A DNA stretch of 53,824 bases, counting the filler, from Jimgerdemannia flammicorona (Eukaryota), in NCBI GenBank assembly GCA_003990765.1. It is 2 parts of 2 records of this genome, joined end to end, with 100 filler letters (N's around TTAATTAATTAA, not from the genome) between each part and the next. Parts side by side here need not be neighbours in the genome. Positions count along the whole stretch, not along the records: positions 1 to 26,863 come from RBNJ01000688.1; 1 more part is not named here. One strand, 5' to 3'. Made by a program: the position numbers and the translations under genes. Under the pieces are notes generated by a model. The model searched no databases, was not told the DNA's origin, and worked only from the letters and a program-made list of their open reading frames with translations. This document shows, in pieces, positions 5,701-47,566 of this stretch. Positions within the stretch are counted from its first letter, which is position 1; the number at the start of each line of letters is the position of its first letter.

Positions 5701-6420
5701 GAAACTTCTTTTACCAGAAGTTATACTACTCTGAGATTCTATCTCAAGTAGTACACCATTAGGATACATATCTCTCCAATAGTCAATCCAGCCTTCAGTA
5801 CATCCTCTAAAGACCCAGTCTCCTCAAAGTTTACCTCTATTTCTTCTAGACCCCCCAGAAACTTAATGGATTCTGTACCATTCATCTGCTTTACAATCAG
5901 CCCCAAGACTATTTTTGCCATCATTGCTAAGCCCCAGAAGTATAAAGTAACTACAAACTCTGAGATTGACTTCTTGAGTAATGGAGCTACTATCAGACCC
6001 ATTATACTATCTATAAGGTCACTCAGCCTTATACTCTTCCCATAGCTCAGTCTACCATCAGCAGTCCTATCTAGATTTTTTCCAGATTGTCTGTCATACT
6101 CCTATCAGCAGTCACTCTTTCAGCCACTACACTGCTAGCTCCCCTATGCTGATCCCCTAGAAGAGCTCTCTCTTTCCCAGCATCTATCTTCCCCTTCTCT
6201 AGCTCCAGCCATCTATCCAGTTCTGTCATCTAAGCTTCCATCTTAACCTTGTTAGTAAAGGTCAACTGCTTCTCTCCTAACTATACTGAGCTTCCTCCTC
6301 CTGTACTGCCACCCCTCCTTCCTCCTGATAAAGTGCTTGGCATCTCTAAATCTGCTCTCTAATCTCTCCTCACATATTATCAGCCAAATATACTAGGGCC
6401 ACCCTGATCAGTACACTCTG
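2735..6420 (-). mobile_element. L1/Tx1-like non-LTR retrotransposon copy A (ORF1, APE endonuclease, start of RT), interrupted by the family A LTR element
   Basis: APE motifs SLNMNG..DLFLLQD (~4290-4375), ENFN, SDH and GPGHWYLN. RT start EDGLPWDFW and NW*SIMLLDIDRKLITKV runs up to the LTR end at 2734. ORF1 is homologous to 35974..36921. Confidence 0.85.
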
Positions 6421-9400: not shown

Positions 9401-9615
9401 TCACCTTACACCCGTTTGGAATGCTCATGAATAAAGCTCTCGGATTTGAGGGTGCTTTGCCACCTGACTCCGAGAAAATATTAAAGATATATAATATGTC
9501 TGTCTTTGATCCCCATTTTCTTATCTTATTCCACAAATCCCCTCTACGCCGCACCAATCTTCTAACGACCATTGCTACGGTTCCCTCCCTTCGCTATCAA
9601 ATAAACGACATTATC

Positions 9616-10412
9616 ATGACTCTGAAGCAAGACGCCGTCGCTGCAGGTTAGACGCTTAACTTTTTCGTTATCTCACATAATTCGTAAAGATCGACTCATA
9701 AAAGTGCCATTATCCAAACCGTCGTTTTTGCTTCAGTCGGCGAGTTCTTTGGCACATTGCTTTTCATCTTTCTAGCTCTTGGAGGTGTTCAAGCAACATT
9801 ATCCTCTGATTCAAATTCAATAAATGGACCGACCCCACCGTAAGTTCAAATGACATACTTATGAATTGGCGAATTGAAAGTCTTGTGATATCACTAGAAC
9901 TCTATTTCCAATCCTATTCAATGCCAGCCAAATCCTGGGTGTCGCGTTCAGCGTTGGTTTTTCGCTTTTGATCTCCGTGTGGATCTTCGCCCCCATATCC
10001 GGTGGCGTTCTGAACCCCGCTGTCTTGCTGGCATTGATATTGACAAGAAACATCTCCCTTGTCAAAGGTGGATTGTACCTCTTCGCAGAATTGGCAGGCG
10101 CAACTGTTGGAGCTGGTCTCCTAGACGCCGTCACCCCTGGTCCATTATTGGGTGTAAACGCTCTGGTGAGGAAAAATTTGCATGGCCACCTTTTTATCAG
10201 CAGTTCCAGATATTCATTCTTTTGATGATTATATAGGGTCGCGAAATCACTCCCTTCCAGGCTACAGTCTTGGAAGCTATATGCACTTCGATACTGGTTT
10301 TGTCTGTGCTCTTCCTGGCCGTTGAGAAATCCAAGACAAATGTCCTTGCTCCCATCGGCATTGGTATGTATTCTGTTATGTATGGACCGACATGGGCCTT
10401 GAATACTAATGG

Positions 10413-10447
<35 letters not shown>

Positions 10448-10821
10448 GTCATCTCAGGATTCGCCGTCTTCGTTGCTAATCTCATTGGTGAGAATTCATC
10501 CAGATGTTTTTAGACTTTTGCGGATTTTGTAAACAGGTTTCCTGACAACATTTACGTTTATGTTCTGTTTTCACCCAAAACAAACAAAAATTGTAGCAAC
10601 ACCATGGACTGGTACTGGGTATGCATTCATATATTTTTCCGTCACCCTCCTTTTCATTGCTCATCTTGTCGGTATTCATTGCTCATCTCTCCCGTATTCA
10701 ACAGCATCAATCCCGCTCGTTCCTTTGGCGCTGCCGCCGTCACTGGTAACTTTACTCCGGATCACTGGGTGTTTTGGGTAGGCAACTAATGACAACAATT
10801 TCAGTGCAGCACATGTCAAAA

Positions 10822-10861
<40 letters not shown>

Positions 10862-10973
10862 ACTTACACATTTCACATCCTTTAACTTGCATGACTTCAG
10901 ATAGGCCCGATTTTTGGGTCCCTTATATCAACGGCTCTTTACAACTTTTTCAAGTGGGCTAAATATGAGCTGG

Positions 10974-11005
<32 letters not shown>

Positions 11006-11013
11006 CTTTCACT

Positions 11014-11044
<31 letters not shown>

Positions 11045-11208
11045 CTCATTCATCACGACCCTTTTTTCCTTTTTCTATACTTATTATTTGAATCACAAAT
11101 GCGTCATAGATCGCACCTGATGACTTAGCTCCGGAACCTATCTCACCTCCAGTTTCCAAGGGTGGTATCACGCCTACTCCACTCGAAACAGTGGAAATTG
11201 GGAAATAG
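9616..11208 (+). CDS. Aquaporin (MIP family), 9 exons, 274 aa
   Basis: Exons 9616-9646, 9737-9839, 9898-10165, 10237-10363, 10458-10487, 10597-10618, 10705-10777, 10901-10972, 11110-11208; all introns GT-AG; 825 nt in frame. Motifs [45 protein letters not shown]. Confidence 0.93.
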
Positions 11209-11536
11209 TTTACTATTCCCTCAACATTCCAGTATTTGGGTATATGTGTATTTACCGCGTCAATTTATAGCAATAAAGTTCTTCCCTTTTAATGGCAGCC
11301 GTCGCACAAATGGGAGAGAGGAACATCGGTATTGGCAATACAGAAAAATGGTTACATTGATGATAGATAATTACAAATTGGATTTCAAAGTTAACCTTCA
11401 AAACAAAAACTACATACTGATTGCGATATTATCTTCGTGATTTCAAGCATGTACATGAAAAAAATATATGATCGAGACTCTGTACATAATCCAAAAAAAA
11501 AAAACTGACACCACTTTCAAGTATTTTGCTTGCCCA

Positions 11537-14500
11537 TTATCCCCATTCCTGTCTGGCCACATTGCTCCCCCTTCTTCCTGTCGCCGCACATGGCCTCGTC
11601 CCGCTCGGATCCCTCTCCCCACTCTGCCGCCATCCAGGCTCCCATTGTTGCGGTGGCGGTGGCGACGGGGAGCTGGCGGGCGTAATGTTCGACGCTGCCA
11701 CGGCTTGCTCATACGATGACTTGCGCCCTGCGACGCTACCGAAAGCTGCTTTCTGAAATAAGGGACGTTGTCGGTGATGGAATCGAGGGCTACTAGATTG
11801 CTCTGATGAGGGAGGGGTGGAGCTGGAATTTGGGGGACGAATAGATGTGTAGGAGGAGGAAGACAAAAGAGGGGTAGAGTTGGGGGTCGAGCGGTTGGAT
11901 GTGGAAATGGACGGAGGGGGATTCGATATACGATTGTTGGATTGATGGGAAGAGAGGGCAATGTTCGGTGTGATTTGGGGTGATGAGGGCTGAGGAGATG
12001 AGAAGGAGGACTGGCGGGACTGTATGATATACGAGAATGTGTCAGATTTGCAAGTGCGAAATGAAATATATGAAATTGCTGAATCAAAGGAGTGGCAAAT
12101 CATACTGACCCTCACATAGTCCATATCGCTCTCTTTTCTTGCTGAACTCTCCAAGCGACCATTACCATTAGCCTTGCTCTTCCTCTGAATTTCTCCCCCC
12201 TCCCTGTAAATGTCATCCACCAAAAACCCTTTCAATCTCTCCACCAATCGCCCTTCCAGATCATCTAACTCCTGCATCGCCTGCCTCACTCTGCCCTCAC
12301 CCATCCGCCAAGCTTCCCTTTCAATCATCCTGCACTCATCCTTGACACTTTCCAACTCCTCTCTTCGCTCTCGCACCTCTTCTTCCAATTCTTTTAAATC
12401 TTCCTTCTTGTCCTTCAGCGTATCCTCCAACTTTTCTACTTCCTCTCTCAATCTCTCGGCTTCAGCCTCCAATGTGTCCCTCCTGGTACCCAACGCCGCC
12501 TGTACGTTGATGAAATATGTCGTTTCCTCCTGCACAGCCCTCAACCTTGCCTCTGCTTCCACAATCTGCTGTTTCAACTGGTCTAATTCTTCCTTCATGG
12601 AACCGGCATCATTGCCGTTGCCAACCCGAACACCAGCTTGCAACTCATCTATCAATTCCCTCACCGACTTTTCCACCAGTTGCTCAATCAAATCGTACAA
12701 CGCTCCATGATGTTCCGTCATGTACGCCCGCATCCCCTCGAGCGCCTGTTCCATGTACTCCTTTGCGTGGCCCTCATACTGGCGCAATCGGGTGTCGAAC
12801 TCCTGCGTCATTCCCGCGTCCGTAGTGTAATCGTTAGACCGGTTGGCGGTGGCCGGGCTCGACGCAAAGCTATCAGCCACGGCTCGACGGATTGTATCCT
12901 CGAGTCCGACATTGCTTCCGCCGAACTTGTCAAGGACACGAAGGACGCGTTCGATGAGCGTTCGGGTCTCCTTTACCATATCCTTGGTGGCACTGGGAGG
13001 CCCCGTTGCGGTGCCATGGGAAGGGAGGTTAGAGTAACTCGTCACCAGTCTTGGCGACGTGGGTGGTTGGCGTGGGGAAGCGTAGTGATATTCATTTTCG
13101 CCTGAAGCGTTGGAGAGCGGAGTCATGGGTCCCGTGGCGGCAGCGACTTGTGAGAGCCTGTATTCCGTCTCTGACATACGGCTGAGTAGGTCTTGCAATT
13201 GGGCGTTAAATGTCGCAAGATCCGGAATCCCACACCCTTCTACGTTTTGCGTGAGCCTCTCTAAGGCCTCCAGCGCGCGCGCCTGATCATGCGCCACCCG
13301 TTCGCTTTGCTCTTGCGCATGCTGCAATCCCGTCTGCACGGTTTCCGCGAAAGTCGCCTGATTCGAGACCAGATCTACTAACGATCTTTCGATCCGATCG
13401 CCAACTACGCGCGCACCGCTATCTGCCTTAATCTGGTTCTCCACCTTTCCCCAAGCCGCGACGGATTCGACGCGGATAGCCTCCAGAAGATTGCTTGTTT
13501 CCTCGGCGCTGCGCGTAAGTTTATCGTTTAGGACAGCCATTAAATCTTGGATGACGCCAGCGTCAGTATCGTGCTTGCGCGCGCTCTCGTTGAGATCTTC
13601 CATGAATTTCTGGACAGCGAACATGCGTGCATCGTCGATGTTAGCACGCGCGGTGCTAGGGCCGGCGGTGTCCTCAAGCCAGAAGGATACGAGGCGGGCT
13701 TGCGAAACCTGGATGAACTGGACCAATTCAAGGAGAGCATCGAATTTGCGCCGAAGAGTCGTGGCCGGGCGAGCTGCATACGCGTCTTCGCCCTTCGTCT
13801 GTTCCACAGAATCCACCATCTCATCTCTCACTACCGAAACATCATCTTTCACTACCGAAACCTCATCCTTCACTACCAACAGCTCTCTCTTCACATCCTT
13901 CAACGCCTCTACCCACGCCTCTTCCTTTTCTTCTTGACGTGCCTGCTCATTATCCAGGAAGCGCACGATGTCCCCCTGCGTCCGACTCCATCCATCCTGC
14001 GTGGAGCGCACGGACTCCGCAAGCCCAAGGATTCCAGCTTTCACCTCAACAACATGATTTTCAATCCGTCGGCTCGCGTCTGTGTCTTCCGGGCTTGACG
14101 AGGAAACCATGTGCCTAATCTCCTCGACTGTTTCTCGAATCGCCGCCTGTTCCCGAGCTATCATCGTATCGAAGGCCGACGGCACCGCTGTAATGTTATT
14201 GTTGCTAGGCAGATTATGCATCATCTGCATCGTCCCGTTGCTGCTGCCGCTTCCGCCGCCACCACCACCACCGCCACCACCACCACCACCGCCATCACCA
14301 TGCTTGCTCTGCTGCCTTAACCCTTCGTTCATCCTCTCAAGATCGGCACACCGCCCCTGCAATCGCCGCACCTCCGCCTCAAGCTGATCCATCTTCCCCG
14401 CCTCGCCCCTCTGCCTCGTCTGTACGGATACGAGCCCCTCGCATCGCCGTTCGGCCTCCTGCGCCTTCCCCCGCCAGATGGACACCTCACGCTCCAGCAG

Positions 14501-15701
14501 TTCCGCGCGGGTCGCGTGAGAGCGCTGCGCGTCCTCCAGGTCCCGGATGAGGCGTTTCTCTCGCCCGGCAAAGTCGCGCTGCGCCGCCTCGAGTCTCCGC
14601 GCGGCTTCCTCCTGTCCGCGCGCCAGTCCCTCCTCGGCCTCAACAACCCGGCGCCGCAGGCTCACGCACTCGGCCTCCAGCTCCGACCGCCCACGCTCAA
14701 GATTACGGTTTCGCGCTTGTGTCTGCGCGGCGCGACTCTGGAGTTCAGCGTGCGACGCAGCGGAAACCTTCCCCATGATGGAGGCCAGAGCATCGATCCA
14801 GGCTTTTCGATCGACGGCGTCATCTGTGGCCAGGACGACATCCTCGCGTTTGACGAGCATTCGGAACTCCCAACGGGAGTTAGGTTTGTAATCTTGTTGC
14901 TTGGGCTCAATTTCGACGCAGGAGGACATGTCGATGGTGCGGCGGTGTGAGGTTAACTGGGAGAGGATAGTGGTTGTGGTAAAAGGGTGCGATTTAAATA
15001 GGGATGAATAAACGAGAGGGGCTCCACCGGCTTGTACTTTTTGAGGTGCAAAAGCAGTTCAGGACGTGTGTTCTCCTCACCTTATCGTCTTTGTACAAGT
15101 ATAATCCTCCCGGTTTGACTGCGTTCCCATGTTTTGCGATGGCATAGCACCGCTTCCATTGCTGAAGACGACGAGGGGTTGAGTGAGCGGTCGTGTAACC
15201 CAGACCCTGAAGTCTACAATCGAAATGCATTGTAGATAACTCACCATAAGGTTGGAGCGTCGCCAGAGCCATCCTGCCTTTGCCACCTGTTTAGGAACAA
15301 GTTGTTGTATTACTGATCAGAAGAGAAATACAGCAAGGTACAGGCGAAAAGATGAAGGTGGATCCACTGACCTTGTACTCGTTGGACGATCTGCTGAAGG
15401 TGGATTCTGCTGCGGCGCTCTCGTCTTCGTCGCCCGAATAGGTTGTCGACACAGTATCATTGTCCCAGTCCTCGCGGTACTCTGGCTCGGGGCGGCGTGG
15501 CGATGGCGGAACGGTATCGGCGCGCCTATCCCCGAAATAGCTGGACATGGAATGTGTAGGCAATGGCGGTGGCGAGACCGAGCGACGAATGGCAGGGTCG
15601 CGCGGGGGGGGATGGAGCGATTTGGTTGCGCTGGGGGGGTCTTGATGGTAGGAGAGCTGCTTGCGGGGTGGAGCGACACCGTTTGGGCGTGCTGAGGACA
15701 T
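11537..15701 (-). CDS. PH-domain, long coiled-coil protein (~1260 aa), function unknown
   Basis: Exons 15701-15372, 15286-15245 (VAKAGWLWRRS), 15161-15081 (QWKRCY..LYLYKDDK) and 14956-11537, with a probable in-frame 90-nt intron 12109-12020 (GTCAGT..CTGAC..CAG). PH C-terminal helix DRKAWIDAL, E/R/K heptad-rich segments, S/P-rich termini. Confidence 0.85.
14253..14298 (-). repeat. Poly-glycine (GGY)n trinucleotide repeat in the PH/coiled-coil gene
   Basis: (CCA/CCG)n on the plus strand encodes the long poly-Gly run after HGD in ORF 11537..14929. Confidence 0.9.
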
Positions 15702-18949: not shown

Positions 18950-21515
18950 TCTAAGTCCCCTTCCCCCTATTATTACTCCCTTTACCTCAGGTTAGTTTGC
19001 TGTGCCTGCAAGAGCATAGTAGAAGAGAGACAATAGTACTGAATTATCTCTTTATTTATATCAAATTAATGACTTCTTTACTTTTTTACAGTTTCTAATA
19101 TCTTTAGCTACATCTGGAGTATATCTGTTTTGGTGTAATACTTTCTTTCTTTTGCTATCATCAATAAGGTATCATCTAGAGTATTATGGGCTATATATAG
19201 AGTTGGCTAACCTTGGGTATCAAGTATCAGTATAGATTACCTATAGATCTCCAGTATCTGTGGTGGGGCTCTCTGAGCTTTGGTAAGCTTCCTGGTGAGA
19301 TCTGCGATTTCTATTGGAAAAGCCTCAGGCCACTTGGTCAGATGTTCTATAAATATAAGAATGTATTTACTTCTTCTTAGTATAACTAGTAGAGATCCAA
19401 TTATGTCTACTTCCCATCTCTGAAAGATATTGCTTAGTGGTATGATTGGTTGCAGTGGTGCTTGATAGTTCTTCTTTCCTTGGTATTTCTGGCAGGTATC
19501 ACATTTCTTGAATATGTTCCAGACTTGTATTCTGAGGTTGGGCCAATGTTGGTATATTGTTTGCAGCTTCTCTTCTATATTTGCCTGTCCCTGGTGGGCT
19601 TTCTGATGTTCTTTTTAGATGAGATCTTCTTGTACCTTGATGGTCTGAGAAGCTTCCTTTAGGGTATAGTTCCTTAGGATACCTTCTTCTGGTTCATTGG
19701 GGCTGGCAGGAAAGTACATCAACATTGTTGTGAGCTTTCCCTGCTTTGTAGATGATGGTGATTTTGTAATCCTAAAGGATAAGAATCCAGCAGGCCAGGA
19801 TTCTGGTGGGTTCCTTGTAATTAAATAACCATTTGAGGGCTGCATAGTCTGTGATCAGAGTGAACCTTTTTCCAATAAGGTAATGCTTGAACAGAGTGAC
19901 CACACATATGACTGCAAAGCATTCCAGTTTGGTGCTACCATAGTTCATCTGCTGCTGATTGGTAGCTCTACTTGCATAAGCTATCACATGGTGCTGTTGA
20001 TCAGGTCCTTCTTGGGCCAGAACTGCTCCAAGGTCAACTTTAGAGGCATCTGTATATAAGATGAATAGCTTCTATAGGTTGGGGTATATAATGATTGGTG
20101 CTGTAGTCATGTAGTTTTTGAGTTCTTTGAAGGCTTTTTCTTATAATTCTGTCCATTTGAATGGTACTTCTTTCTTGAGAAGGATCCAGATTGGAGCAGT
20201 GATTTGAGCAAAGTCTTTGATAAACCTTCTGTAGTAAGATACTAGTATCAGAAATGATAGTATCTCCTTTGGGGTTTTGGGTACTAGCCAATTATTAATC
20301 TTCTTGGTTTTCTTTAGGTCTATATGGATTCCTTCTTTTGAAACTATGAATCCCAGGAATTCAAGTTTCTGTTTCCCAAAGTAGCATTTCTTTGCATTCA
20401 ATCTCAAGTGATTCTTATAGATGAACTTGAAGAATTCTTCTAGGTGGTACAGGTGTTCTTTGAAATTTGCTGAATAGATGTTGGAATCATCTATATATAC
20501 AATTAGGCAGTGGTGGATCAGAGGAGCATAGACTGAATTCATCATCCTCTGGAAGGTGGGGGGTGCATTGTAAAGTCCAAATGGCATTTGGAGATATTCA
20601 AACAGTTTTTCTAGAGTAAGAAAAACTGTTTTTTGAATATCTTTTGGGTCCATGGAGATCTCATGGAACCCTGCAAAGAGGTCCATACTGCTGAAGTATC
20701 TGGTATCTTGTAATTGGTCCAAAAGGTCATCAATCCTGGGCAAAGGATAAGCATCCTTCTCAGTGACTAAATTGAGTTTTCTGTAATCCACACAAAGTCT
20801 CCATCCTCCTTTCTTTGGTACAATAAGTATAGGGCTGGCCCAGGGGCTAGTGGAGGGTCGGATGACTCCATTGTCTAAGAGTTCTTGAATGTGCTCTTTT
20901 TTGAATATTTTCAAGTAATGGGGTATTCTATAAAGTTTCTGCTGGATGGGTGTTACACTTTCTGTATTTATACTATAGTGATATAATGGGTTGTATGGCA
21001 GGTTACCATAATCAGTGGTGAAGATATCTTGATATTTGTTGAGAAGTTCTACTAATTTTTGCTGTTGTTGAGGTGTCAATTCTTCTCCAATGTTGGTGGA
21101 AGGCTTCACTGTCTTCTGGGTCGCAGAGGGGCCTTTCCTTTTTTCTGGGATCTTTTGCCATTTCCCGATAGGTTTAGTTTATTAACTTCCCTATAAGTTC
21201 GGTTGAGAAAAGACACCAGATGTCCTATGATAGTTCCTTTTGGCAGGATGATGGTCTCCCAACTTTGGTTGATTGCTCAGAAGTGTACTGGGTTCATCTT
21301 GTCAGAGAATGTATATTCCTCTATATCTAGGTGTGGGATATCTTCCTTAGGTTCAAAGAAAAGGTTTCTGGGGTCGGGTGGTACAAAGATTTTGAAGGTA
21401 GTTTGTTCTCCAGGCTCTAGGATGAGATTCTTATACAGTCTAACTGGTTGCCGGTATACTTGCTGGGGAACATTCCTCTTGAGATAGTTGACTTAAAGGA
21501 GATATACCTCCTTCC
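18950..21515 (-). mobile_element. Ty3/Gypsy element, degenerate pol (RT, RNase H, partial integrase); host of the family A insertion
   Basis: ORF 20141..21109 has SPWASP, LCVDYRKLN, MPFGL and YIDD. RNase H YASRA..NYGSTKLEC..LITDYAALKWL. Integrase CDTC and WEVDIIG..HLTKWPEAFP, then coding similarity is lost. Left boundary approximate. Confidence 0.88.
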
Positions 21516-23579
21516 TGTAAGAGGGTTACTTTTTAGGGTAACCATTACGTAGTTCTGGAAGGGTTTTCTGGATATTCTGGATGTTCTGGAAGACCGTTTT
21601 CTTATGGTCAAGATTAATTGCGTATAGAGTATGTCCTCTATGCTTATTGATTTCAAGATCGGGTTGATGTCTCAACCAAAGTCCTTTCTCGGACTAGTTC
21701 TGGATGTTCAGGATTTTCCATATTTCAGGAAGTTCAAGAAACTAAGACCAGCTTAGTTGAATTGGCGTATTGCTGCAGACAATACCCAATTAGGAAATTT
21801 CGTGACAGAGTTAGGAGTAGGACCTAACAGGGAGCGGATTTACTTAAGAGTAGTTTGTGGGTTATAGAATAGGTTTATTTGCTATTCATGATATTACTAT
21901 ACTAGGAGTATTTGTGTGAAGGGATATTGTGGGGAAGTGCTCAGGAGTTGTGTTCGAATTGTTCAAGTCTGAGATTCTGAGGTCTGGGGGAGGGGGTATT
22001 TATACTAGTGAGGGGCTATCTGGACTATGCTAGATATAGATGTAGCACTAAGTGCCTTGCTGAGTCGGAATGCAGTCACGTAGTACAAGTGTGATCTGAC
22101 ATGTCAAGAGATCATCTGACTGCTGAGTCAGTTCACAGTTATATCGTACAAGGCTAATCTATCTATACTATGACTGCTAGACTATTTATAGGTTTAGGCA
22201 CTATCTGGGTAGTCTTCGATGACATCACCATCGATTGCATCATCTCTGATGAAGTAGTCATCTAGGAAGAGTGGTTCGCGGATTACTTCTCTTTGTTGGC
22301 TGAGGTAGTAATACATTGGGACTTCATCTCCATCCCACAGGATAGCATTGTCTGTCTCGTAGGCTAGATAAGGTGTTGGTGGGCAGATGATGGGTGTATT
22401 GTCTTCGCTTTCATCAGATTCACTGTCTGCATACCTTCTATAGGTTACAGCACTATGAGTCGCAGGGTTGTAGTAAGCTAGTGGCTGTGGTTCATGTTGC
22501 TCGTACTCAGGTGGTGGCGTTGTTGGTTCAATCTCGAGGGTTGTCTGGAGGTACAGGTTGTGTTCTCCGGTCTCTTCATTGTAGTTGAAGTAGTCGGGGG
22601 TGAATGCAGGTTGGTATTCGTGCCAGTGGTCATTGTCTCAATAAGTTTCGTATGTGGTTATGAACTATTGTAAGTTCATCGGCAAGGTTGGCGGAGTGAT
22701 CAGGGTTGGCAGAGATCCTTGGCTAGAGGTCATATCAGCATCAGAGGGATCATTGTCTTCTGCTTCATCTTCATCGAAGTGGATTATATCGTAGACATCC
22801 TTCATGGTGTATCCAACTTGGGGCATTTGTAGGATATGGTCATCAGGGTGCAGGAAGGTTCTGTCTGTGGTCTGGACGTATTCGAGGTACTTGTGGTTGA
22901 GTTCTTGTATCATGTCATCGATTTGGCCGTAGGACAGGGTAGCAATCATTTTGCTGGTAGTAACTCAGAGGCGGGGAATAAAGGTGTTGTATTCGTAGAA
23001 GAGTTCTTGATGTTTGCGGGCGATGAGCTTCTGGTGTTGAGACATCTGGGTAATATCTGTATCATGGTGGTGTTCGACCATATCTTCCAGGAGGCAGCCG
23101 ATCTGGTAGTAGCTTGAGATTTATCCGATTCGGTGGACCTCGCTAAGCATGTTCAGGGCGTTTCATCGGGCTTCCACAAAGTAGAGGGGTGCCAGGCTAT
23201 GGATATTCATGAGGGGCAGAGGGGGTGTAGCTCGGTTGACAATGGTATTCCAAATGTCAGCACAGATATAATTGTAGATCTTGGTGGTCATGTTTGTGTG
23301 TTGGGAAGTTGTGGTTGTTGTTTGTTTTGGTTCTCTGATTCGATGCATCTCAGTGCTCAGTATATATGCATTTGGTCCTGATTGGTAAGGTTCTGTTTAT
23401 GTAGATCTTGTGTTCTGTGACTTCATATTGACTCAGCTTTGTGCACTGTGACTTCAGTTTGACTCAGCTTCATGATCAAGCAGGTGATTTCCAGATTTGT
23501 TCAGAGGTCACGTATGATTTCAGTAGCTTGTTCAGAGGGTGACGTGTAATTTCGGTGGCTTGGAGGTTGTGCGCTTACA
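21516..23579 (-). repeat. Family A LTR (2064 bp), termini TGTAAG...CTTACA
   Basis: 6-bp terminal inverted repeats, directly after the PPT. TATAAATA at 22004-21997. Full-length homology to 645-2734. Confidence 0.92.
22194..23291 (-). pseudogene. ORF inside family A LTR (~365 codons, acidic, PPEY motif), interrupted only by point stops
   Basis: ORFs 23163..23348 and 22665..22949 and the tail to TAA 22194 share one frame with no indels. Five in-frame stops. Confidence 0.75.
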
Positions 23580-26500
23580 ACTCTCCCCTTCTTAGCTTTC
23601 GATGTCCTCGTCGGGGCCTTCTAATTTGTTCTAGTGTTGTTATACCATTTAGGAGGTCAAAAGTCTGGTAAGGTCTATTTTTTCAGAAAGTGGCATGCTC
23701 GTAGTACAGTTGCCTAACATGTTGGATTCACACGTTAAAGGGTCGTGTGTTCAATGCTGTGCGCCAGAAGTGATTCTGACATCATTCACTGCTGGAGAAT
23801 TTCCTCTAAAGAATCTTCTTAAATGTCTATGCCTTGTTTCCCACCAGTGGTACAGGGAGAATAGGCTTGCTTTCAGTTTTGCTATTTTCCAGAGGGTCGG
23901 TATTCTTGTCTTGTTTTGCAGAGTTCTTGACTTAGTTCGTGATAGTTATAATGTTCAGAAGGGTAATATATAGTATGTATGGATAGGTGCAGAGTTTTTT
24001 GGTTCTAGTTGTTCAAGGAATCATATTCCTGAACTAGGTTGGTAGCATTCTGGAGATTGGTCTTGGGTTCCCAGGTTACATCATGGATTGGGTAACCTTT
24101 CCATTTGACAAGGTACTCAGGGTGGTTCTTGTTACCACATTTATTGAGGATTTGTTCAACTTCGTATTCTTCTTGGTCATTTATGATGATAGGTGCAGGT
24201 GGTTTGGTGGTTCGGTTTGGAAATAGTTCGTCATCATTGTCATTGTATCGCTTGAGATGTTGAACATTAAAGACTGGGTGAATCTTAATGGTGTCTGGTA
24301 GTGCCAGTTTGTAGGAGGTTGGAGAGACTTGTGTAATGACTTCAAATGGTCCGATGAACTTGCTGTTCAGCTTTGTAGATGGTCTGTGCTTGAGGTTGTC
24401 AACTCGGTATCCTCTGATGTCCAGTAGAACTTTTTCTCCAATATCAAAGGTTTCTTCTCGGCAGTGTTGGTTAACATACTGTAATTGTTGTTCTTGAGCT
24501 CGCGATAAATTCTCGATGGCAATTTGGCTTAAATTGCGCATTCGGAGTAAGAATTCTTCAACAGCTTCGACTGTGGAGGGTTCTTCAGTGGTTTGGATAA
24601 GTGTCAACAGTGTGTTTGGATTTTGTCCAGTGTTGGCAAAGAATGGGGTCATTCCAAGAGAGGCTTGCTTGCTGTTATTGTAGGCAAACTCGACTGCGGT
24701 GAGATGTTCATGCCAATCATCTTGTCTGTAAGAGACATAGTTCCTTAGCATTTGTTCTAGGGTTCAGTTCATTCTTTCGGTTTGGCCATCAGTTTCAGGG
24801 TAAAAGGCTGTGGATAGTGCAAGTTTTGTTCCAAGGCATGCATGGAGGGCTTTCCAAAAGTGGCTGGTGAATTTTGGATCTCGGTCACTAACAATGATCT
24901 TGGGAAGACTATGATAGTGGAAGATGTTGTCAAACAAGAGTGTGGCTATGTCTGGTGCTGTTGCAGTAGTGATAGTGGGCACAAAGTGGGCTTGTTTGCT
25001 GAGATAGTCCACAAAGACAACGATTGCATCTTTTCCATTCTTAGTCCAGGGTAGTTGTACAATGAAGTCCATAGAGATTTGTTCCCAATTTGCGGATGGT
25101 ACTGGGATAGGGTGAAGTAAACCGGGTTTTGCTAGTGTTGAGGACTTGTTTCGTTGGCAGGCATCACAGGAAGTGATGTAGGTTTTGAGCTGATCTGCCA
25201 TGCGGGGCCAGTAGAAGTTTCAGGAGATAACTTCATAGCATTTATCAAATCCTAAATGTCCAGCTGTAGGGGCATCATGACATTCGAATAGGATAGTCCT
25301 TCGGAGGTCTTGGTTGTTTGGGACATACAGTCTGTCCTTATAGTAGATAGCATTATCCTTGAGTTGGTATTGATTGTACTGGATATGCTTGTCAGCATTA
25401 TCATTGTTCAGGATTTCTCGGAGTGCTTGAGCTTCTTTATCATCAACACATGCTGTAATGATTTGTTCCATGATAGTATTGGTAACCAAGGTTAGAGTTT
25501 GGATAATCTCTTCGATTGGTGGTCTGGAGATTGCATCGGCAATAATATTTTCCTTGCCAGGGCAGTACTGAATTTCATAGTCAAAGTTGGTGAGGACTTT
25601 CATCCAGCTAGCTTGCTTTCAGGAAAGAGTAGCCTGTGTCTTGATGTTGAGTAATGACTTGTGGTCAGTCAATACAGTGAAGTGTGCTTCTTCTAGGTAT
25701 GGTCGCCATTTGATCAGAGTGTCTACGATGGCTAGCATTTCCTTCTCATGAGTTGTGTAGTTGATTTCGGCATCATTGAACTTGCGGGAGTGATAGGCCA
25801 CAGGGTGTCCTTCTTGCATGAGCACTTAGGTCAGAGGCATCAGTAGTGACTTCGTATAGTAGGGCAGGGTTTGCCGCTTGAAGTACTGGTGTGGTTATCA
25901 GGGCATCTTTCAGTGCTTGAAAGGTGGTATCTTGTTCGGGTCCCCAATTTACAAGATTGTTGAAGTCTTTCTCTTGTTTCATGGTCCAAGGTTGTTCTTG
26001 TTTCTTGCTGTGCTTGGTCATTTGGGTGAGGGTGGTAGCGATTTTGGCAAAGTTGGCAACAAATCACCTGTAATAGTTTGCTAATCCCAGGAATGACTGG
26101 AGGTCTTTCAGCTTCTTCGGTGTAGGCCAATCTTTGATTACAGAGATTTTGCTGGGGTCCACTTTGATTCCATTTGGGGTGACAATGTGTCCAAGGAATT
26201 GAATTTCTTTCAGAAGAAATTTGCACTTGCTGAGTTTTGCAAAGAGTCGGTTTTCTCAGAGTTTCAGTAGTACTAGTTCAAGGTGTTCAAGATGTTCTTC
26301 CAGGGTTTTGCTGAAGACTAGGATGTCATCAATGTAGACAACAATGAATTTGTCCAGGTATGGATGCAGAATGGTATTCATCAGTGTCTGGAAGGTTGCT
26401 GGAGCATTAGTTAAACCGAAGGGCATAACCAGGAACTCAAAGTGTCCATAGCGAGTTTGGAAAGCTGTCTTGTAGATGTCTTCTTCTTTCATGGCAATTT

Positions 26501-26862
26501 GCCAGTAACCATTTTGCAGGTCAAAAGAGCTCATGAATTGTGGGTTGGTAAGTCTATTGAATATTTCATCGATCCTTGGTAGTGGGCAACAGTTCTTGAT
26601 GGTCTGTTCATTGAGATCACAGTAGTCAATGCACATTCGCAGGTCTCCTCCTTTCTTGACAACAAAGAGGACTGGTGTACCATAGGGTGATACACTGGGT
26701 CTGATGAATCCTTGTTCTAGGAGTTCATTAATTTCTTTCTTGAGTGCATCAATTTCTCTCGGAGACATGTGGTAGATTGACTTGAAGGCTGGTTTGGCAT
26801 CTGGGATAGTCTTGATTGCATGGTCTACTGCTCGTTTGGGAGGTAGGCCTTTCAGGAGCTTC

Positions 26863-26963
26863 TNNNNNNNNNNNNNNNNNNNNNNNNNNNNNNNNNNNNN
26901 NNNNNNNTTAATTAATTAANNNNNNNNNNNNNNNNNNNNNNNNNNNNNNNNNNNNNNNNNNNN
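26863..26963. other. Assembly gap with artificial six-frame-stop linker
   Basis: N run containing TTAATTAATTAA at 26908-26919. Confidence 0.97.
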
Positions 26964-29900
26964 TTTTTTTAAAGTCACTTAGACTTCCCTTTATTATTGT
27001 CTTCTATAATAATAATGATACAATATCACCCCATCTCTTCAACCAATACCCCTCTGATCTACTCTACCCTCCTCTACTCTCCCCTGCCAGAGGACAACCC
27101 AGTTACCCACTATCTGAATCCTTCTGCCACTTTTCTGAGAGATACACTGTACTAACCCCCTGTGACTCCCTACACCTATCTCCCACCCTCACCACCAGCC
27201 ATTCAAAATATCCAGTAATAACTACTCTCAATATACCACCCTATCCTCAACTCCCACCCACTGGCCCTCCTCAAATATATATACCCAATGCTCAGCTATC
27301 TCCACCCATATGGCCAGAGCCCAACTGAGGGTCAGCCATTCATCCTTGACCCATTCAACCAGCCTTTGGCAGAGCTCTCCCCATCTCTCCCCTTTCTCTC
27401 CCTCCAGGGCTTGTAGCCCTAACTAGTCTGCAATATACCACCAAAACACCCCCAAAATTTCACACTTACCAAGCCAATATTCAGGTATTTGTATCACTCC
27501 CCCTTCCTGTCTAACATCAAAGCACTCCTCACACTCAAATGTGCCACCGGCCATCAAGTGCCCAGACCGATAGTTCAACATCACATTCTACCATAGGACT
27601 CACCACCATATCACTCAGAATTTGGAGGGCAACCACTGTATCACCTGCTTGCTCCAATGCCAGAGACCATTCCAGTCTCACTCCTCACTAATACTAACTC
27701 TCTGCCAGACTTCAGGCCAAAGATCACCACCCAAACCCCACAAACACTCTATACCATCACTAAGCTAGAAGTCCTCCACCAAAGCTCTGCCCAGCAGTAG
27801 CCTGTCCCATCACCACATCTACAGTCCCCAATCCTCCTCTCCTTCATCACCCTATCACCAAAGACCAATTCTTCTAGCCCCATCTATCACCCTCCATCAA
27901 AAGCCCTTATACTGCATCCTCCTGCTCCCATCCATAGCCACTATCACAAGTAGGTCACCAGAGACTCCATGAGGGGAATACTGGGTCTCCCACACCCTCT
28001 GTATGAGCAGTACCCACTCCTGGCCCCTCAGCTCACTTGCCCTCCTCAGCCACCAGGTCCTCAAATAGTGAAGCTGTTTGGTAAAGTCCACTAAACCCAG
28101 CCCACCTCTTTCCACTGGTAGGGTAAGAACCTCCCAGCCTATCTGACTCTACCACTCTCCCCAGATCCACAATCTCACCATCTTCAATAGCCCCTTAACC
28201 ACCCAAGCCAGAAAGTCCAGATGATATTCTACATACCACAGCTTTGGTATCCAATATACATTCAGCACCATCACCCTTCCTACCAAGGATATATGCTGAC
28301 CACCCCAATGCAGAAGCATATTTCCCCACTCTAGAAGTCATTGGTTCCACCATGCATAGAGGAGGAATGACCCAAATACTGAGAAGTAGATCCCCAAGTA
28401 ATGTACTGACTCTCCTGCTAGCACCACTGTCCCAATCACATCGCCATCAATGATTCCACCACCTAGCACCAGAGTCTCACATTTGTGCTAATTGAGTTTA
28501 GCACCTGATCCCCTCTCATATCATTCAACAGACCTTTGTAGTTCCCCTACATCTACCAATGAGCCCAGTCCAATCACCATATTATCCACAAAGGCTCCCA
28601 CCTTCCAATTTATCCCTAGAATGTCCAATCCCCCAATTCGATGCCAGATCCTATCCAGTAGGGGCTCCAGGGAGAGGGCATACAAGATGGGTGACAGAGG
28701 GTCCCCTTGTGGCACACTATGACCAAGAGGAAAGGCTACCTCCCTGTGGCCATTGACTATCAAGGCTGCCTGACTGTTTTTCAAAAGATCAATCAATGAT
28801 CCATAAAAACCTGGGGGAACACTAATCTGTTTCAACACTCCCTCTAACCAGATCCTCCTCACTCTATCATATACCTTCTCTTGATCCAAAAAGACCAATT
28901 GGCCATCCACCCCTGCAGCCTAAGCTCCTTCAATCATACTATATATCTAAGCCATCTCATCATGGATCAACTGACCCCCGACAAATCCTCACTACTCCAC
29001 ACCAAGCATCTGCTGAGTGATTCTCTATAGTCTCAACACCAATATCTTGATCACCAATTTGCAGTCCATGTCAAGTAGCATGATTGGCCACCAGTTCTTT
29101 CAATCTTCCCATCTCCTCTTATCCTTGTAGAGCAAGGAGACCAACCCTAGGTGCTGGCCCCCAATCTATGTTCCAGACCAAAGAACCTCACCATACATAT
29201 CTGTTATTTCCTCCAATACCTCACCCACTCCAGCCATCTTCTTCCAAAAGTCCCAGAGAAGTCCATCCTTCCCCAGAGCCATCTTCTTATTTGTCATAGC
29301 CAAAACCTTACAAATTTCCTCTCCACTCACCAGGTCCCCCAAAGACCCCAGACTCATAGCAGAGTCTAGATGCCAATCCCCCAGCTGCCTCTCAATGGTC
29401 AAAGCATCCTCCCCCCCTTCCTCCTCACTCCACAGATCCTGTCAATGGGTCCTTAATAATTCCAGAATTGCCAGGGTCCCCACCACCATCTCCCCATCCA
29501 CACCCAGTACTCTATCCCACTGCTATTTCACTCATTGTATATATAACATCTGTGATAAAAACCTAGTAGGCTGCTCTCCCTCCTCAAGTCCCTGCCATTA
29601 CAGCCACACCACTATCCCCTTCAGCCTAACCTCCTTCTCCCTTCATAATATTTCCTTAAGCTCCATGACTTCCTTCTGGATCCTCACAATATGCCAGTCA
29701 GTCACCTCCCAATCCTCTAGCACCCCTGTCCATCTCCCCATGAGTGCCACCAATCACTGTGAGACCCATAGTACTCTCCACTATCACTGAACATATCTTT
29801 CTTTCTCTGCTTCCCTCCAGTACTCCTGAGTACTTGCCTTTAGCCTCCTCCAGTAGTTCCCAATCACCAGGTCCTGGTCCCACTACCTTCCAATATACCC

Positions 29901-32630
29901 AATAACCTCCTTTTCCCAGTCCACCCACAAAACCCCATCCTCTAACAAAGAAGAATTGAGTCACCAATGTCCAGGCCCATCCCCACTTCCCCCAAACCTC
30001 CCCCCTCCCAATAGACCTCAGTGATCTGACCATGGACACCAAACCACCTCTAGCAACATCCAGACATCTGCTTCCCAGCAATCTACCATCAATATCCAGT
30101 TAATTCTTGAGCCCAGCCCTGCCACTCAGTGAGTATAAATGTGATGATCATCCCAAAACTGTCTCTCTGAATCAACTAAAGAACTCAGTCTCTCTACCTC
30201 CAACCAGTCATCCAACCCACCACTCTTGCTCCTCATTTCTCTCCCTTCATCTGTCCTATCTTTCTTCTTATCTCACACTATGTTGAAGTCACCCCCCAGG
30301 CAGTCCAACCCAACCTTGTCTAAGATACCTGCCTTTTCAAACTGCAAATCCAATCCACTCATTCCCCTCTCTCTACTGGACAGTAATATGACCCCACTGT
30401 CAATAGGCTCCATCTAGACCTCTTCTACACTCTCCACACCAACTGAGACCCCCAATATTCAATATCCCCAATGTCCCCCATCCCTTTTTGAACAAGGATA
30501 TCCACCCTCCCCATCTATACTACAGCTCCCCCCCATTCCTTAGTCCAATCCTGTAAGTCCACATCTACCTCATAATGAATATCCTACAGCAAGAAGAGAT
30601 CCACATCTAGTCCCTTTAGCCATCCAAATATGAACCTCCTCCTAGCCACCTCCTATAACCCATTTACATTCAAAGAGAATATTCTAGTTATACTATTCAT
30701 ATTGAAAAAATGTTTGAATTCAAGATCCCAGCCTAGTATTCCATACTCATCTCATCTCTAGCCAGATCAAAGTACCACTCAGCTTTCAAGTTACCCTCTA
30801 CAATAGCTTGAGCATCTAATATCTCCAAAATTTCCTGACATTCCACCCCATCCACCACCTCCATCTCAGACTGATAGTCTATACATACTATTCTCCACTT
30901 CTCTAATCTCTTTCTCGAGCTCTACAAGTATACTGTCTGATCATTTACAATCTCCCTAAGTTCCTCCTCCCTCTGGTTATCCACTTGGTATTCAACAGAC
31001 CCCAAAAGAACTGCTAGGATCTCATTCCTCACCTTTCTTGGGATCTCTTCACTATGAAGAATTTCCTCTCAATGCCTCTCTTTCATAATCTGGAAGTCCT
31101 CTCCCCCCAGCTCCTCTACTGCCACCCCTTCCAGAGTCTTCCACAGCTACTTCTCCTCATCCACCACCTCTACCACACTCTGTACAACCTGACCACCCCC
31201 CACCTCTGGGTCCACCAAAGTGCTCCTCCTCACTGACTCATCCCACTCCTCATCCAGTATATCCAACAGCTCCTCCTCCCCCCCTGCCCCACTCAGGACA
31301 CTATACTGAGAGTACACTCCTTCACTCATTTCTGCATCTGTCTCTACACCACTGACCCTCTCCTCCCTCAATCCATCCTATGCCCCACCTTGGGCCACTC
31401 TGTTTTCCCCTGCCCAGGCACTCTCCTGTAATTCTGCTTTTCCATCCCCTGTGCTACTGCCTGCCCCACTACTGCCCAACTTCACCAGCAGCTCCTTCTG
31501 GATTTTCCTCCCCTGCATCTTCTCCCAGGTCATCTGATCCATTCTGACTCTCTTCCCATTGACTACTTCCACCACCATCCTTGCCTTGTACTCCTTCCAA
31601 GCCAATCTCCTCCTCTTGACCACTTCTTCCAGGTCCTCCAGAGCCTCAAGCAAGTCTTCCTCCTCTTCCAGAGTCCCCTTCACCCTTGTGACCTTGCACT
31701 CTACCAGTCCCCACTTCAGAGTCACCAGCCAGTCCCTCATCTTCCCCATGTTCTCCTTCCAGCTGGCCTCACCCAGATATCAACATCACTAGTCTGAAGC
31801 TCTGTACCCTCCCAGACCTTGAACCTGACATCTACAATCTCCCCATACTCCTTAACTACCTCTATAATCAACTCTCTAGCCCTCTCTCTTAACACCATAG
31901 GAAGATCCAACACTGTCAACTACATCACTCAGGGGTCCCAGTGCATGCACCTGGCCATCAGGACCACAACTCCACCCACTGTTACCTCTTTCTCCATAGC
32001 TGCCAGCAATGCTTCTTCTTTCTCAAACCCCATCTTGACCTCTTCTTTCCCTTTCAAAAACTTCACCAATACTGCCCCTTTTGCCTCCTGTGCCACCAGC
32101 CCAAGATCATCCTCACAGTTACTGCCAAGCCTCTGAAATACATAGTGATGGTAAATTCTGATCTTGATTTCTTAAGTAACAGTACTGACACTATGCCTGT
32201 CACTCCATTCACCAGATCCCTGGTCCTTGTGCCCACTCTCTGTCTCAAACCAGCAACCACTGTCACATCTGGATTTTTTGCCAAATTCCCAGTTATAGCC
32301 CCATCAACAGTCATATCTCCAGCCCTTACTCCCCCCCCTCCCCTACCACCGGACACTCCTCTGAGCACTTCTCCCTGACCCCCAGCAGTAGCTATCAACG
32401 CCTTCCTCAGGCCTAGCCAACTATCTAGACCAGAGGCCATTCTCCCCATCTTGACTATGCTAGTAAAGGTTGACCTCTCTCCTCCTCTCTGCCTCAGGCC
32501 ACCCCTCCCTCTACCACCAGAGCCTTGGCCAGCCATCGAGGCCCCTGGTATCCCCAAACTATCTCCCCTCCTCCCCACTTGCTGCCAGCCAAAGGCACCA
32601 CTGCCCCCCTGGCCAGTATGCTCACTAGAT
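26964..32630 (-). mobile_element. L1/Tx1-like LINE copy B, near full length (ORF1, APE, RT, C-terminal Cys motif, probable poly(A) end)
   Basis: RT motifs FLDQEKVYDRV, VPQGDPLSPILYALSLEPL, AFVDN and ERGGLGL. APE GDFN and GPGHW. T-run at 26964 beside the gap. ORF1 GNLAKNPDV. Confidence 0.9.
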
Positions 32631-34959: not shown

Positions 34960-36990
34960 CCTAAGTATGTCTCACTCACTTTCACCTAGAGTCTTGTCTC
35001 ATATTTCCTTATCAGTAGCCACCATTGTAAGTCCAAGTCATGTTTAGCAGCCAGTACCTTCTCTTCCACTACCCATGCCTCCAGTCTGACCAGAAGTTTA
35101 GCCATCTTCCCATCCTCTTTTTTCTTGAAATCCTCATGATATTTCAGGCATGCCTCCTGCCAGAGTTGCAAATCATGATGCTCTGCCTAACAGTAGGCAG
35201 CTCACTCACCAGCAATGACCACTAGCTCAGCCTCTCTTTCCTTATCAACCTCATATCCCTCCTTCTTCAGAAAAATCACAAGTATCTCTGCCTTTAGTGC
35301 CTTCACTACCCCATCTCCATGCAGAATCTATGCCCAATGATCCTTACTTATCACTCGCAGGTCCACTTCTCCCAACTCTTCAGCTATGAAGTTATCTATC
35401 ATCTTGCTTATCTATCTCCTTCCCTCCAGACATCTCTGGTCTCCCTGTATCCAGCATCATGGTATCTGTCCCTACACTGGCAGTCTCATCCCACCCCTCC
35501 TCTGAGATATCCACCAGCTCATCCTCACCAACTGCCACTACCTGTCCTCCTTTCATCACATCTAAAACCCCAAAGTATATCCACTAATTGCCCCTTATCA
35601 GCTCATCCTCTGCCACCTGACCCCTCACAGCTGGACTCTGCCTGACCAATAGGGGGGTGTCATCAATGACTGGTTTCCAGACTTCAAATATACCATTAGC
35701 AAAAGAGTCTTTGTGAGGTACCTTCCCAGCTCCTTCCAGGCCCTCCTCTATATCTCCTCCTCTCTTACTAGCCCAGACACTTGCCTCTACATTCTCAGAC
35801 TTCTCAGTACCCCCAGCCTTTATCTTTATCCCTCCTTCTATGCTTACCAGCAGCTCCCTCTACCTCTGGCACCCTTGAGCCCTCTCCCACTGCCTCCTAT
35901 CAGTATGAATATGCTTCTCGTCAACAATCTCTAGATGTATCAACTCTATATACAACTTCCAGGCCTTTGCCCTCTACTCAACAGTACTACTCAACTCCTC
36001 TAGAGCCTTCAACAAGACCTCCTCCTCCTCTTCACTCCTTTTTATCCTTGATACCTTGCAGACAAAAGTTCTCCACATTAATACTGAAGGCCAGTTACTC
36101 ATCTTCTCTGTGGCCTCTCTCTCAGCCAGTCTAATCCTGACATCTACATCACCCATCCTGAAGGTGGTCTCCTCCCATATCTGAAAACTGATATCAACCA
36201 CATTGCCATACTCCGCCATCACCTCCTCCACCCTCCTCCTAGTCTTATCCTTTGTCACTGTGGGCACTCTCTTTACTAGTAACTGCACCACCCTGGGGTC
36301 CCATCTCAAGCACTTCACTATAGAGATCACTACCTCCCCTATAGCTACTCTAGACTTCAAAGCCTCCTCCAATAGATCTGCCTTCTCAAAGCCCACCTCC
36401 ACCCCCTCCAACCCCTTCAGAAACTTCACTGAGACCACTCTAGCCATCTGCTCTAATATAAGCCCCAGAACCATCCTCACCATCACAGCCAAGCCCCTGA
36501 AACACAAGGTCACCATGAACTCCAAAATTGACTTCTTGAGCAATAGTGCCACCACTAGCCCCATCACACTATCAGTCAGGTCTCCCTTCTGCTTCAGGTC
36601 CATCTGCCTAGCCCTTCCATCAATAGTCACATCTGGATTTTTTTTCAGATTCCCAGTCATGCTACCATCAGCAGTCCTGCTACTACTCTCAGTAGCTACT
36701 CCACTAGCCCCACCTCTCACCAGCTGAGGTCCAGCACCTCCAGCTTTCCCAACCTTCTGCTTTCCCTTCCCTCCTGCCTGCCCACCCTGAGTTCCCACCA
36801 GCCAACCTCCAGCCCATAGTATATCTGCAAAGCTTCTCTCCTTCTGCCCTCCAGTTCCACTAGTAGTGCCACTTCTACTACCCAAGCTGTCCTGCCCACT
36901 CTGACCACTGAAAGACCCCATTCCTAATCTATACCCTTGCCTGACATGTTGTCAGTTAAAGGCCCCAGGTCTACCCAATCTAGTATACAT
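34960..36990 (-). mobile_element. L1/Tx1-like LINE copy C (5' UTR and ORF1 only)
   Basis: ORF 35974..36921 with GNLKKNPDV and an RRM-like VVQLLVKRVP..EYGNVVDI..GDVDVRI segment. 5' leader motif shared with copies A, B and D. Confidence 0.85.
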
Positions 36991-37119
36991 ATCTGCTTGC
37001 TTACTGGTTGCTATTGCCTTAGTACCTTTCTCCAATAAATAACTTGAAAGTATGTTATAAAAGTGTGTGTAATATGAATTATAGTAGAGAGAGGTGAGTG
37101 TAGACTATCTGTAGGTCCT

Positions 37120-44075: not shown

Positions 44076-44489
44076 ACCCTCAAGATTAAGAAGTTTCACC
44101 CCAAAATCAAGATCCTAGAATATAAGGCTAAAGAAGCTATAGGAATAGACCTTGCCAGCATCCAAGATGCCATTCTCAAACTACAGACCACTACTCTACT
44201 TAGTACTGAAATTGGAGTCATGTTATCAGAGAACCATGTTGAAATTATCAAAACTGAGAGCAGTCTGGCCAAGAGCAAAATCTCAGTTGATGGAGGAGTC
44301 ATTGATCCTAACTATACTGATGAGATCTTTCTTATAGTTAGGAATTACAACTCCACCACTCTATTCAAAGTCAAAAAGTATGACAGAATTGACCAGATAC
44401 TAATCCATGAAGTTAAGAAGCCTAAGATCACTGAAGCTATCAAACTCATCAAAACTAAGAGAGAAGAATAAGGCTTTGGATCTACTGAA
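44076..44489 (+). pseudogene. dut: dUTPase domain in the family B pol, between protease and RT
   Basis: All five trimeric dUTPase motifs in one frame: AIGIDL, ESSLA, GGVIDPNYTDEI, DRIDQ, REE*GFGST. Confidence 0.9.
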
Positions 44490-47400: not shown

Positions 47401-47566
47401 TATAAAGGAAGTGACTCTTCACTATTATACCAAAATATATAAGGAAGATACTAGCCTATAAATACTACTTTTTGACCCTCTGTTAGAGGTTATAAGATCA
47501 GCAAATTTTTCAGACTAGACCAATGAATAAGAATACTTAAGAGAAGATCCTTATTCAGAAAGAAGA

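Follow-up and report, generated by a model that had tools for sequence, protein, structure and literature searches.

The window analysed here is the whole 53,824-nucleotide stretch of DNA from Jimgerdemannia flammicorona (assembly GCA_003990765.1), which joins parts of two records and carries the 3' ends of two decayed chromoviruses, that is, Ty3/gypsy retrotransposons with a chromodomain. The two copies, A and B, lie in opposite orientation with about 19 kb between them, and they share 80% identity over 2699 aligned columns. Wholly inside the long terminal repeat (LTR) of copy B, and in the same orientation as gag-pol, lies an open reading frame (ORF) of 365 codons and a stop that is interrupted by five internal stop codons. 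A preliminary description had placed such a frame at 22194-23291 within a 2064-bp chromovirus LTR, and its translation (MTTKIYNY...EDYPDSA, then stop), the LTR termini and the pol domains agree with that placement. Taken together, the data make it probable that the frame is the decayed copy of a genuine chromovirus protein gene carried inside a 2.06-kb LTR. The features on which the argument draws are as follows.

22194-23291, minus strand: LTR-borne ORF of copy B, 365 codons plus stop, 5 internal stops.
21516-23579, minus strand: LTR of copy B (3' LTR), 2064 bp, with TGTAAG...CTTACA ends.
23292-23579, minus strand: 5' part of this LTR, 288 bp, by its motifs a putative promoter of the ORF.
21516-22193, minus strand: 3' part of this LTR, 678 bp, with the putative main promoter, R and U5.
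23581-23593, minus strand: polypurine tract AAGAAGGGGAGAG, one base upstream of the start of LTR B.
24167-21516, minus strand: chromovirus copy B repeat, in the opposite orientation to copy A.
24005-26863, minus strand: pol of element B with reverse transcriptase (RT), RNase H, integrase, SH3 and chromodomain; stop codon at 24007-24005, cut at the linker.
26864-26963: linker N44-TTAATTAATTAA-N44, which cuts element B inside RT.
41-2734, plus strand: chromovirus copy A repeat, comprising the end of pol, a spacer and a long terminal block.
41-644, plus strand: end of pol of element A with chromodomain, spacer and polypurine tract; pol stop at 201-203, tract at 631-643.
645-2734, plus strand: LTR of copy A, 2090 bp, heavily C-to-T and G-to-A mutated.
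942-2038, plus strand: LTR-borne ORF of copy A, with 15 in-register stops and a 1-bp deletion near 1250.

Both copies have the same architecture, in which the end of pol is followed by a spacer of ~425 bp and then by the terminal block ending in ...CTTACA, beyond which the flanks of A and B are unlike. Element A is cut by the window start, and the 5' half of element B is missing because contigs were joined at the linker; A and B are the 3' LTRs of two different insertions and not the LTR pair of one element, and the window holds no third copy or direct-repeat partner of either. The pol of element B, which runs in the order RT, RNase H, integrase, matches the Pfam families RVT_1 (3.9e-34), RT_RNaseH_2 (4.8e-07), Integrase_H2C2 (3.3e-21), SH3_Tf2-1 (8e-18) and Chromo (5.3e-16). 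The Chromo match covers residues 479-527 of the frame closed by the pol stop, C-terminal to the integrase. The match to rve (3.7e-06, 27.6 bits) lies below the curated cut-off of 32.6. Since RT, RNase H, integrase, SH3 and chromodomain are all found, the element is, judged by its domains, a chromovirus.

Because the window contains no 5' LTR, the placement of the LTR draws on the polypurine tract, the termini and other copies of the element. AAGAAGGGGAGAG is the sole purine run of at least 10 on the sense strand of the 2652-bp shared stretch, the TGTAAG at 23579 is a 6-bp inverted repeat of the CTTACA end at 21516, and the likeness between A and B stops exactly at 21516. Contigs of three DNA runs, X1, X2 and X3 (two soil metagenomes and a run of 'organism A'), were placed on 21300-24400; the runs that contain the LTR are mostly soil metagenomes, and depth here is a sum over contigs and organisms that is used only for the positions of steps. 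In all three runs this summed depth rises at ~21508 and falls at ~23588. Specifically, X1 goes from ~145 before 21508 to 1255-3008 up to ~22235, 680-1376 up to 23587 and 47-473 beyond, and X2 and X3 step in the same way.

Individual contigs mark the two ends more closely. Three X3 contigs with loose ends at 21516/21518 run on, on the sense strand, into TTGGTAGCAGCAG or TTTGTAGCAGCAG, a continuation that is common to the three, unlike the flanks of A and B, and which we take to resemble a primer-binding site of the tRNA-iMet type. This primer-binding-site-like sequence, TGGTAGCAGCAG, adjoins the LTR end in these three X3 contigs only, the window being without paired LTRs; its shared position after the CA end indicates that the other copies in X3 would be 5' LTRs. 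At the opposite end, one X3 contig (depth 2) passes from the TG end into another, unrelated LTR part and so marks 23579 as an element terminus. The 2064-bp LTR unit is thereby well supported, though not proven by paired LTRs.

The same data bear on a different reading of the boundaries, in which the true LTR would be only the last ~680 bp and the ORF an internal extra gene between pol and the 3' LTR. The absence of the 5' LTR from the window leaves room for it, a second, roughly two-fold depth step near the ORF stop (between 22028 and 22339) lies where such a boundary would be, and plant elements with additional ORFs after pol and ahead of the 3' LTR are well known, according to the available portion of PMC7264820. 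However, the only polypurine run, at 23593-23581, stands beside the TGTAAG that mirrors the CTTACA end, whereas after the ORF there is neither a purine run nor a matching terminus. The depth of X1 and X2 falls three- to four-fold at 23588, at the proposed start, and the X3 junction contig joins that same start to foreign LTR sequence. The positions themselves do not suit an internal gene: after the pol stop (24007-24005) comes the tract, and only at 23291, with 288 bp of LTR already passed, does the ORF begin. An ORF outside the LTR is therefore quite improbable, and the following sections treat the frame as LTR-borne. Separately, a comparison of the first 300 bp of the LTR with its last 685 bp showed no duplication.

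Counting the terminal one, the frame of copy B contains 6 stops, where the other two sense frames have 16 and 28. It is more open than chance allows: 5000 shuffles gave a mean of 16.5 stops (standard deviation 3.8), with five or fewer in only 0.1%. Four of the other five frames have 16 to 28 stops. The fifth, the in-phase antisense frame, also has only 6, which lends something to the view that the frame merely reflects an A/C-rich composition, or that the true signal lies on the other strand; the rarity of so few stops among the shuffles already tells against the compositional form of that view.

How the internal stops arose can be read by setting copy B against copy A and against two open relatives, the protein records P0001 (ENA, 247 residues) and P0002 (JGI, 128 residues, ending at the contig end).

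Codon 43: TGA in copy B, TGG in copy A, W in the open relative P0002.
Codon 57: TAA in copy B, CAA in copy A, Q in P0002.
Codon 109: TGA in copy B, CAA in copy A, R in P0002.
Codon 209: TAG in copy B, TAG in copy A, Q in the open relative P0001.
Codon 218: TGA in copy B, TGA in copy A, W in P0001.

The earlier claims that copy A (942-2038) complements the first three stops, with TGG, CAA and CAA, and that two further stops are common to both copies are borne out, the shared ones being codons 209 and 218. All five internal stops of copy B are a single C-to-T or G-to-A step away from sense. The frame had also been called free of indels, which is true of copy B and not of copy A, where the deletion near 1250 shifts the frame; this 1-bp event is the only indel in the frame across both copies, and stops and indels alike come out in favour of the earlier reading. 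In copy A, 13 of the 15 stops face a sense codon in copy B, 11 of these 13 being a single transition away.

The wider pattern of decay is of the same kind. Transitions account for 420 of the 498 substitutions between A and B, every CpG site is changed in at least one copy, C-to-T changes are also frequent at CpA and CpC, and mutations in copy A are about four times as frequent as in copy B. Both copies in the window are dead. By its base changes, their decay is of a methylation-deamination type or resembles repeat-induced point mutation (RIP), and is not classical RIP confined to CpA.

Because transition decay hides selection, the selection test was restricted to the 29 transversions between A and B within the ORF. 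Eighteen of them fall at codon position 3 (P = 0.0014), and 15 of 29 are synonymous in the ORF frame where 14.3% is expected (P = 2e-6), giving a transversion-only dN/dS (ratio of nonsynonymous to synonymous change) of ~0.16, not the ~1 that had been named in advance as a sign against a gene. The other five frames have 6, 2, 0, 8 and 4 synonymous transversions of 29, none significant; the zero belongs to the in-phase antisense frame, despite its only 6 stops, and 0/29 against 15/29 speaks for the sense strand. The synonymous excess persists after codon 218 (9 of 17, P = 2e-4), and for this reason the shared stops at 209 and 218 are more likely parallel hits than the legacy of a truncated progenitor. 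Of 14 indel events only 1 lies in the ORF, although 41% of the alignment columns belong to it (P = 0.007). At the three codon positions the ORF uses the bases in almost the same proportions as the element's integrase-chromodomain frame, and codon choice correlates at 0.79 with pol as against 0.55 with a neighbouring host gene. These comparisons of the two copies indicate purifying selection, and in the ORF frame only.

The two relatives add gene calls from independent samples. P0002 is identical to residues 1-128 of the ORF at 111 of 128 positions (87%) and has the same MTT start. P0001 is identical to residues 115-364 at 166 of 250 positions (66%, with 208 positives, 83%), with two in-frame 2-residue gaps; its Met aligns to residue 115, from where it is open to the stop, and it has the same end. 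Both calls thus use the frame of the ORF, its ATG and its stop, which again disfavours a chance origin. An exhaustive search of 1.84 billion representatives returned P0001 only, with a profile of the 247 C-terminal positions that did not cover the N-terminal 114 residues, and none of 641 candidates in the longer length class was a longer or fused form. A captured host or pol fragment, raised earlier as a possible source of the frame, found no backing, as no such relative of the ORF turned up. At the DNA level, metagenome contigs gave 339 pattern matches, viral contigs 20 and genome contigs 12, none of them confirmed as relatives, and a transition-tolerant 32-letter pattern had no match in metagenome contigs.

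The protein is likewise without known family, in line with the preliminary view of an unrecognised element-borne protein: no Pfam family was found for the ORF (E up to 0.01), P0001 or P0002, and the best sequence match in the PDB has E = 0.56. It is acidic (isoelectric point 4.27), and its second half combines 45 Asp+Glu with only 5 Lys+Arg, 19 Tyr and 21 Pro. The top 19-residue Kyte-Doolittle window reaches 0.86 in the ORF and 0.57 to 0.97 across the three proteins, values by which the protein has no membrane-like segment. AlphaFold2 gives the whole protein a predicted local distance difference test (pLDDT) score of 31, with helices over residues 3-141, little else and low confidence, and models the N-terminal 128 residues as a five-helix bundle (pLDDT 52.7, pTM 0.43). 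The ESM Atlas model of P0001 (pLDDT 0.39) has no usable feature match, with template-modelling (TM) scores of 0.30 or less; a Foldseek comparison with the PDB gave at best E 0.85 and TM 0.18-0.32, which on so low-confidence a model is meaningless. The low confidence of these folds (31 for the whole, 53 for the N-terminal part, 0.39 for P0001) is the remaining point in favour of a non-coding frame, a reading that the strand-specific synonymous changes, the independent gene calls and the shuffles have largely refuted and that has become very improbable.

Between lineages that are 66% identical, the tail keeps blocks such as FITTYETYW, YQPAFTPDYFNYNE, QPLAYYNPAT and EPLF.D.YFIRDD. The models and the alignment point to a protein whose N-terminal ~140 residues are helical and whose conserved tail, rich in Tyr, Pro, Asp and Glu, is predicted to be without fold; the conservation of the tail agrees more with a series of short binding motifs than with a fold. 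Two more specific ideas were rejected. The budding-type motifs PPxY (PPPEY in copy B) and the YPDS end are not conserved in P0001, and DNA binding by the N-terminal part does not suit a segment that is not basic (isoelectric point 5.9).

The LTR around the ORF contains the following signals, all on the sense strand of the element.

LTR position 25-160: repeated units in the LTR 5' part.
23466-23460 and 23435-23429, minus strand: TGAGTCA twice, at LTR positions 114 and 145.
23366-23361, minus strand: TATATA at LTR position 214, 75 bp before the ATG.
Up to LTR position 288: CA-rich leader before the ATG at 289.
LTR positions 289 and 1386: ATG and stop of the ORF.
22130-22124, minus strand: TGACTCA at LTR position 1450.
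22004-21997, minus strand: TATAAATA, a second TATA box, at LTR position 1576.
21879-21874, minus strand: AATAAA at LTR position 1701, the LTR ending at 2064.

Because TATAAATA and AATAAA lie downstream of the ORF stop, the ORF would lie in U3. A further run, X20, whose RNA label is a guess, has high contig depth only over 21612-21923, from about LTR position 1657, and offers a weak hint of transcription starting downstream of TATAAATA, low X20 cover elsewhere being uninformative. Separately, a 9601-base contig of X20 (depth 369) aligns to 22392-22594, with 81% likeness to ORF codons ~232-300. At that length it could span an element read from the middle of one LTR into the LTR at the other end, and it may represent an expressed related family in another organism.

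A mechanism compatible with these signals can be sketched. Within the first 288 bp of the LTR the ORF would have a promoter of its own, and its message would be ended by the poly(A) signal of the LTR itself, so that each LTR, and each solo LTR, could be a self-contained gene copy. The product would be an accessory factor, dispensable for the chemistry of retrotransposition, that might work as an adaptor by means of its conserved tail, which is acidic and rich in aromatic residues. That this adaptor raises transcription of the element or counters host silencing is a tentative suggestion, prompted by the acidic aromatic-rich tail, by selection on an element-borne gene and by the cytosine-directed mutation pressure on the copies; a transactivator role, from the same tail, is a guess. 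Were the gene complete within the LTR, every insertion would add two gene copies, and solo LTRs born of recombination would make the factor in trans for the whole family.

The depth profiles also bring a third explanation into play. In X1, X2 and X3 the summed depth over the last third of the LTR (21516-22235) is about double that over the part with the ORF (22236-23587), as if ORF-less LTRs were common. The ORF could then be a passenger, a sequence acquired into the U3 of one chromovirus lineage, its origin obscure, perhaps expressed and of no use to the element, whether host-directed or selfish. A protein with no family and only two relatives is in keeping with this, as are the two stops common to both copies, and possible ORF-less LTRs recall the Podospora element crapaud, of which the available description places the variable part in the 5' halves of the LTRs. 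A passenger would nevertheless have to accommodate purifying selection on the frame along the lines to A and B, also after codon 218, and a 66%-identical lineage that is still open from its Met at residue 115 to the same stop. Its codon make-up, equal to that of pol, argues for long residence in the element, and where a gene moves with the element alone, selection on it is most simply read as selection for the spread of that element. As such, a useless passenger is unlikely.

Several points nevertheless weigh against a selected gene in the LTR. The selection test draws on no more than 29 substitutions from a single pair of copies, and the relatives are only two, from short contigs and known as protein sequences. 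The window contains no 5' LTR of either element, and the other copies used to place the LTR are known only as metagenome contigs. The two-fold depth suggests that LTR variants without the gene exist or that other families share this end, so that the gene may be dispensable, and the stops common to both copies could mean a truncated progenitor. Statements on promoter, U3 and function derive from motifs and composition. With these points counted in, that the gene is real and located in the LTR is still well supported. The fuller proposal, that it is the first LTR-embedded accessory gene outside retroviruses, a self-promoted U3 gene of a new acidic adaptor family that activates the element or blocks silencing by methylation, RIP-like mutation or RNA interference, is speculative and would on present evidence have to be considered doubtful.

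The remainder of the window is also rich in mobile elements. Directly downstream of LTR B, at 19237-21178 on the minus strand, lies a fragment of a different gypsy-type element (RVT_1 1.4e-31, Integrase_H2C2 8.4e-06), which together with LTR B is a nest of transposons. A second LTR retrotransposon occupies 40597-48428 on the plus strand, with direct repeats at 40597-41133 and 47890-48428 that are 83-86% identical and a dUTPase domain at 43980-44471 (9.1e-17) upstream of RT at 44802-45170; dUTPase in gypsy elements has been described for a basidiomycete, in the available part of PMC2864245. Three blocks, 2735-7000, 27000-32000 and 35000-37000, are strongly asymmetric between strands, with a plus-strand GC skew of ~-0.45, and contain long frames that match no Pfam family, and 4462-4761 is 70% alike to 35029-35328; the blocks are probably another decayed repeat family. 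GC skew also changes sign across the linker at 26864-26963, on either side of which the sequence need not be neighbouring in the genome. Between the two chromovirus insertions, 9000-15058 holds host genes, one an aquaporin-like frame with an NPA motif and the other a 1173-residue frame with a weak PH-domain match that resembles Mcp5_PH clusters. One of these clusters bears the label Basidiomycota, which at a score of 0.82 is a lead only.

Retrotransposon LTRs are generally treated as non-coding control regions, and annotation pipelines mask them and seek no genes there. A selected LTR gene would show that solo LTRs can be protein-coding loci and that fungal elements may carry host-acting factors. 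RIP-like mutation and cytosine methylation are the main fungal defences, both of which have visibly destroyed the two copies in the window, and the gene is a concrete candidate for transposon counter-defence in fungi.

Among known systems, the element itself is like the fungal chromoviruses of the Tcn1, MAGGY and PosPlaTy3 type in its RT, RNase H, integrase, chromodomain, TG...CA LTRs and polypurine tract (Novikova et al. 2010, PMC2864245). No ORF-bearing 2-kb LTR is described in the available text of that paper; the legend of its Figure 3 mentions an 'add. ORF' of obscure function in the depicted elements. Closer in gene content are the additional ORFs (aORFs) of plant and rotifer elements, which likewise add genes to gag-pol; many belong to no known family and some follow pol, according to the available portions of PMC7264820 and PMC5408684. 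In those portions the aORFs lie in the internal region, whereas the ORF described here lies beyond the polypurine tract and inside the LTR; neither paper contains the phrases 'within the LTR' and 'inside the LTR', and the sole 'in the LTR' (PMC5408684) does not concern an ORF.

Retroviruses offer the nearer parallels in position. Like tas/bet of foamy viruses and nef of lentiviruses, the ORF would be a 3' accessory gene associated with U3. Unlike it, those genes begin in the internal region and extend into U3 without lying wholly inside it, and there is no relation in sequence or fold. Foamy viruses drive their 3' accessory genes from a separate internal promoter, and the putative promoter of the ORF would be a further likeness. 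The parallel with Sag and Nef that had been drawn at the outset stands for gene position and fails for sequence, which shows no match, and also for the hydrophobic segment, which this protein, unlike Sag, lacks.

The closest counterpart is sag of mouse mammary tumour virus (MMTV). Sag, a type II membrane protein, is made from RNAs that are spliced or begin at an upstream promoter. Its gene is a sense ORF of a few hundred codons contained entirely in the LTR, ahead of the TATA box of the promoter, so that both LTRs have it, and it is accessory, being none of gag, pol and env; the present ORF would be alike in all of this. The two differ in that the protein described here has no likeness to Sag in sequence, fold or membrane anchor, that its host is a fungus and its carrier a chromovirus without env, and that its promoter would lie inside the LTR. 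In the literature on ORFs in or within LTRs, with few subscription journals covered, almost only MMTV sag appears and nothing on fungal or plant retrotransposons; as far as searched, an accessory gene of an LTR retroelement that founds a new protein family and is placed inside a fungal chromovirus LTR is not in print. A selected protein gene in such an LTR would show that the retroviral habit of keeping an accessory gene in U3, as MMTV does with sag, also arose in a simple retrotransposon.

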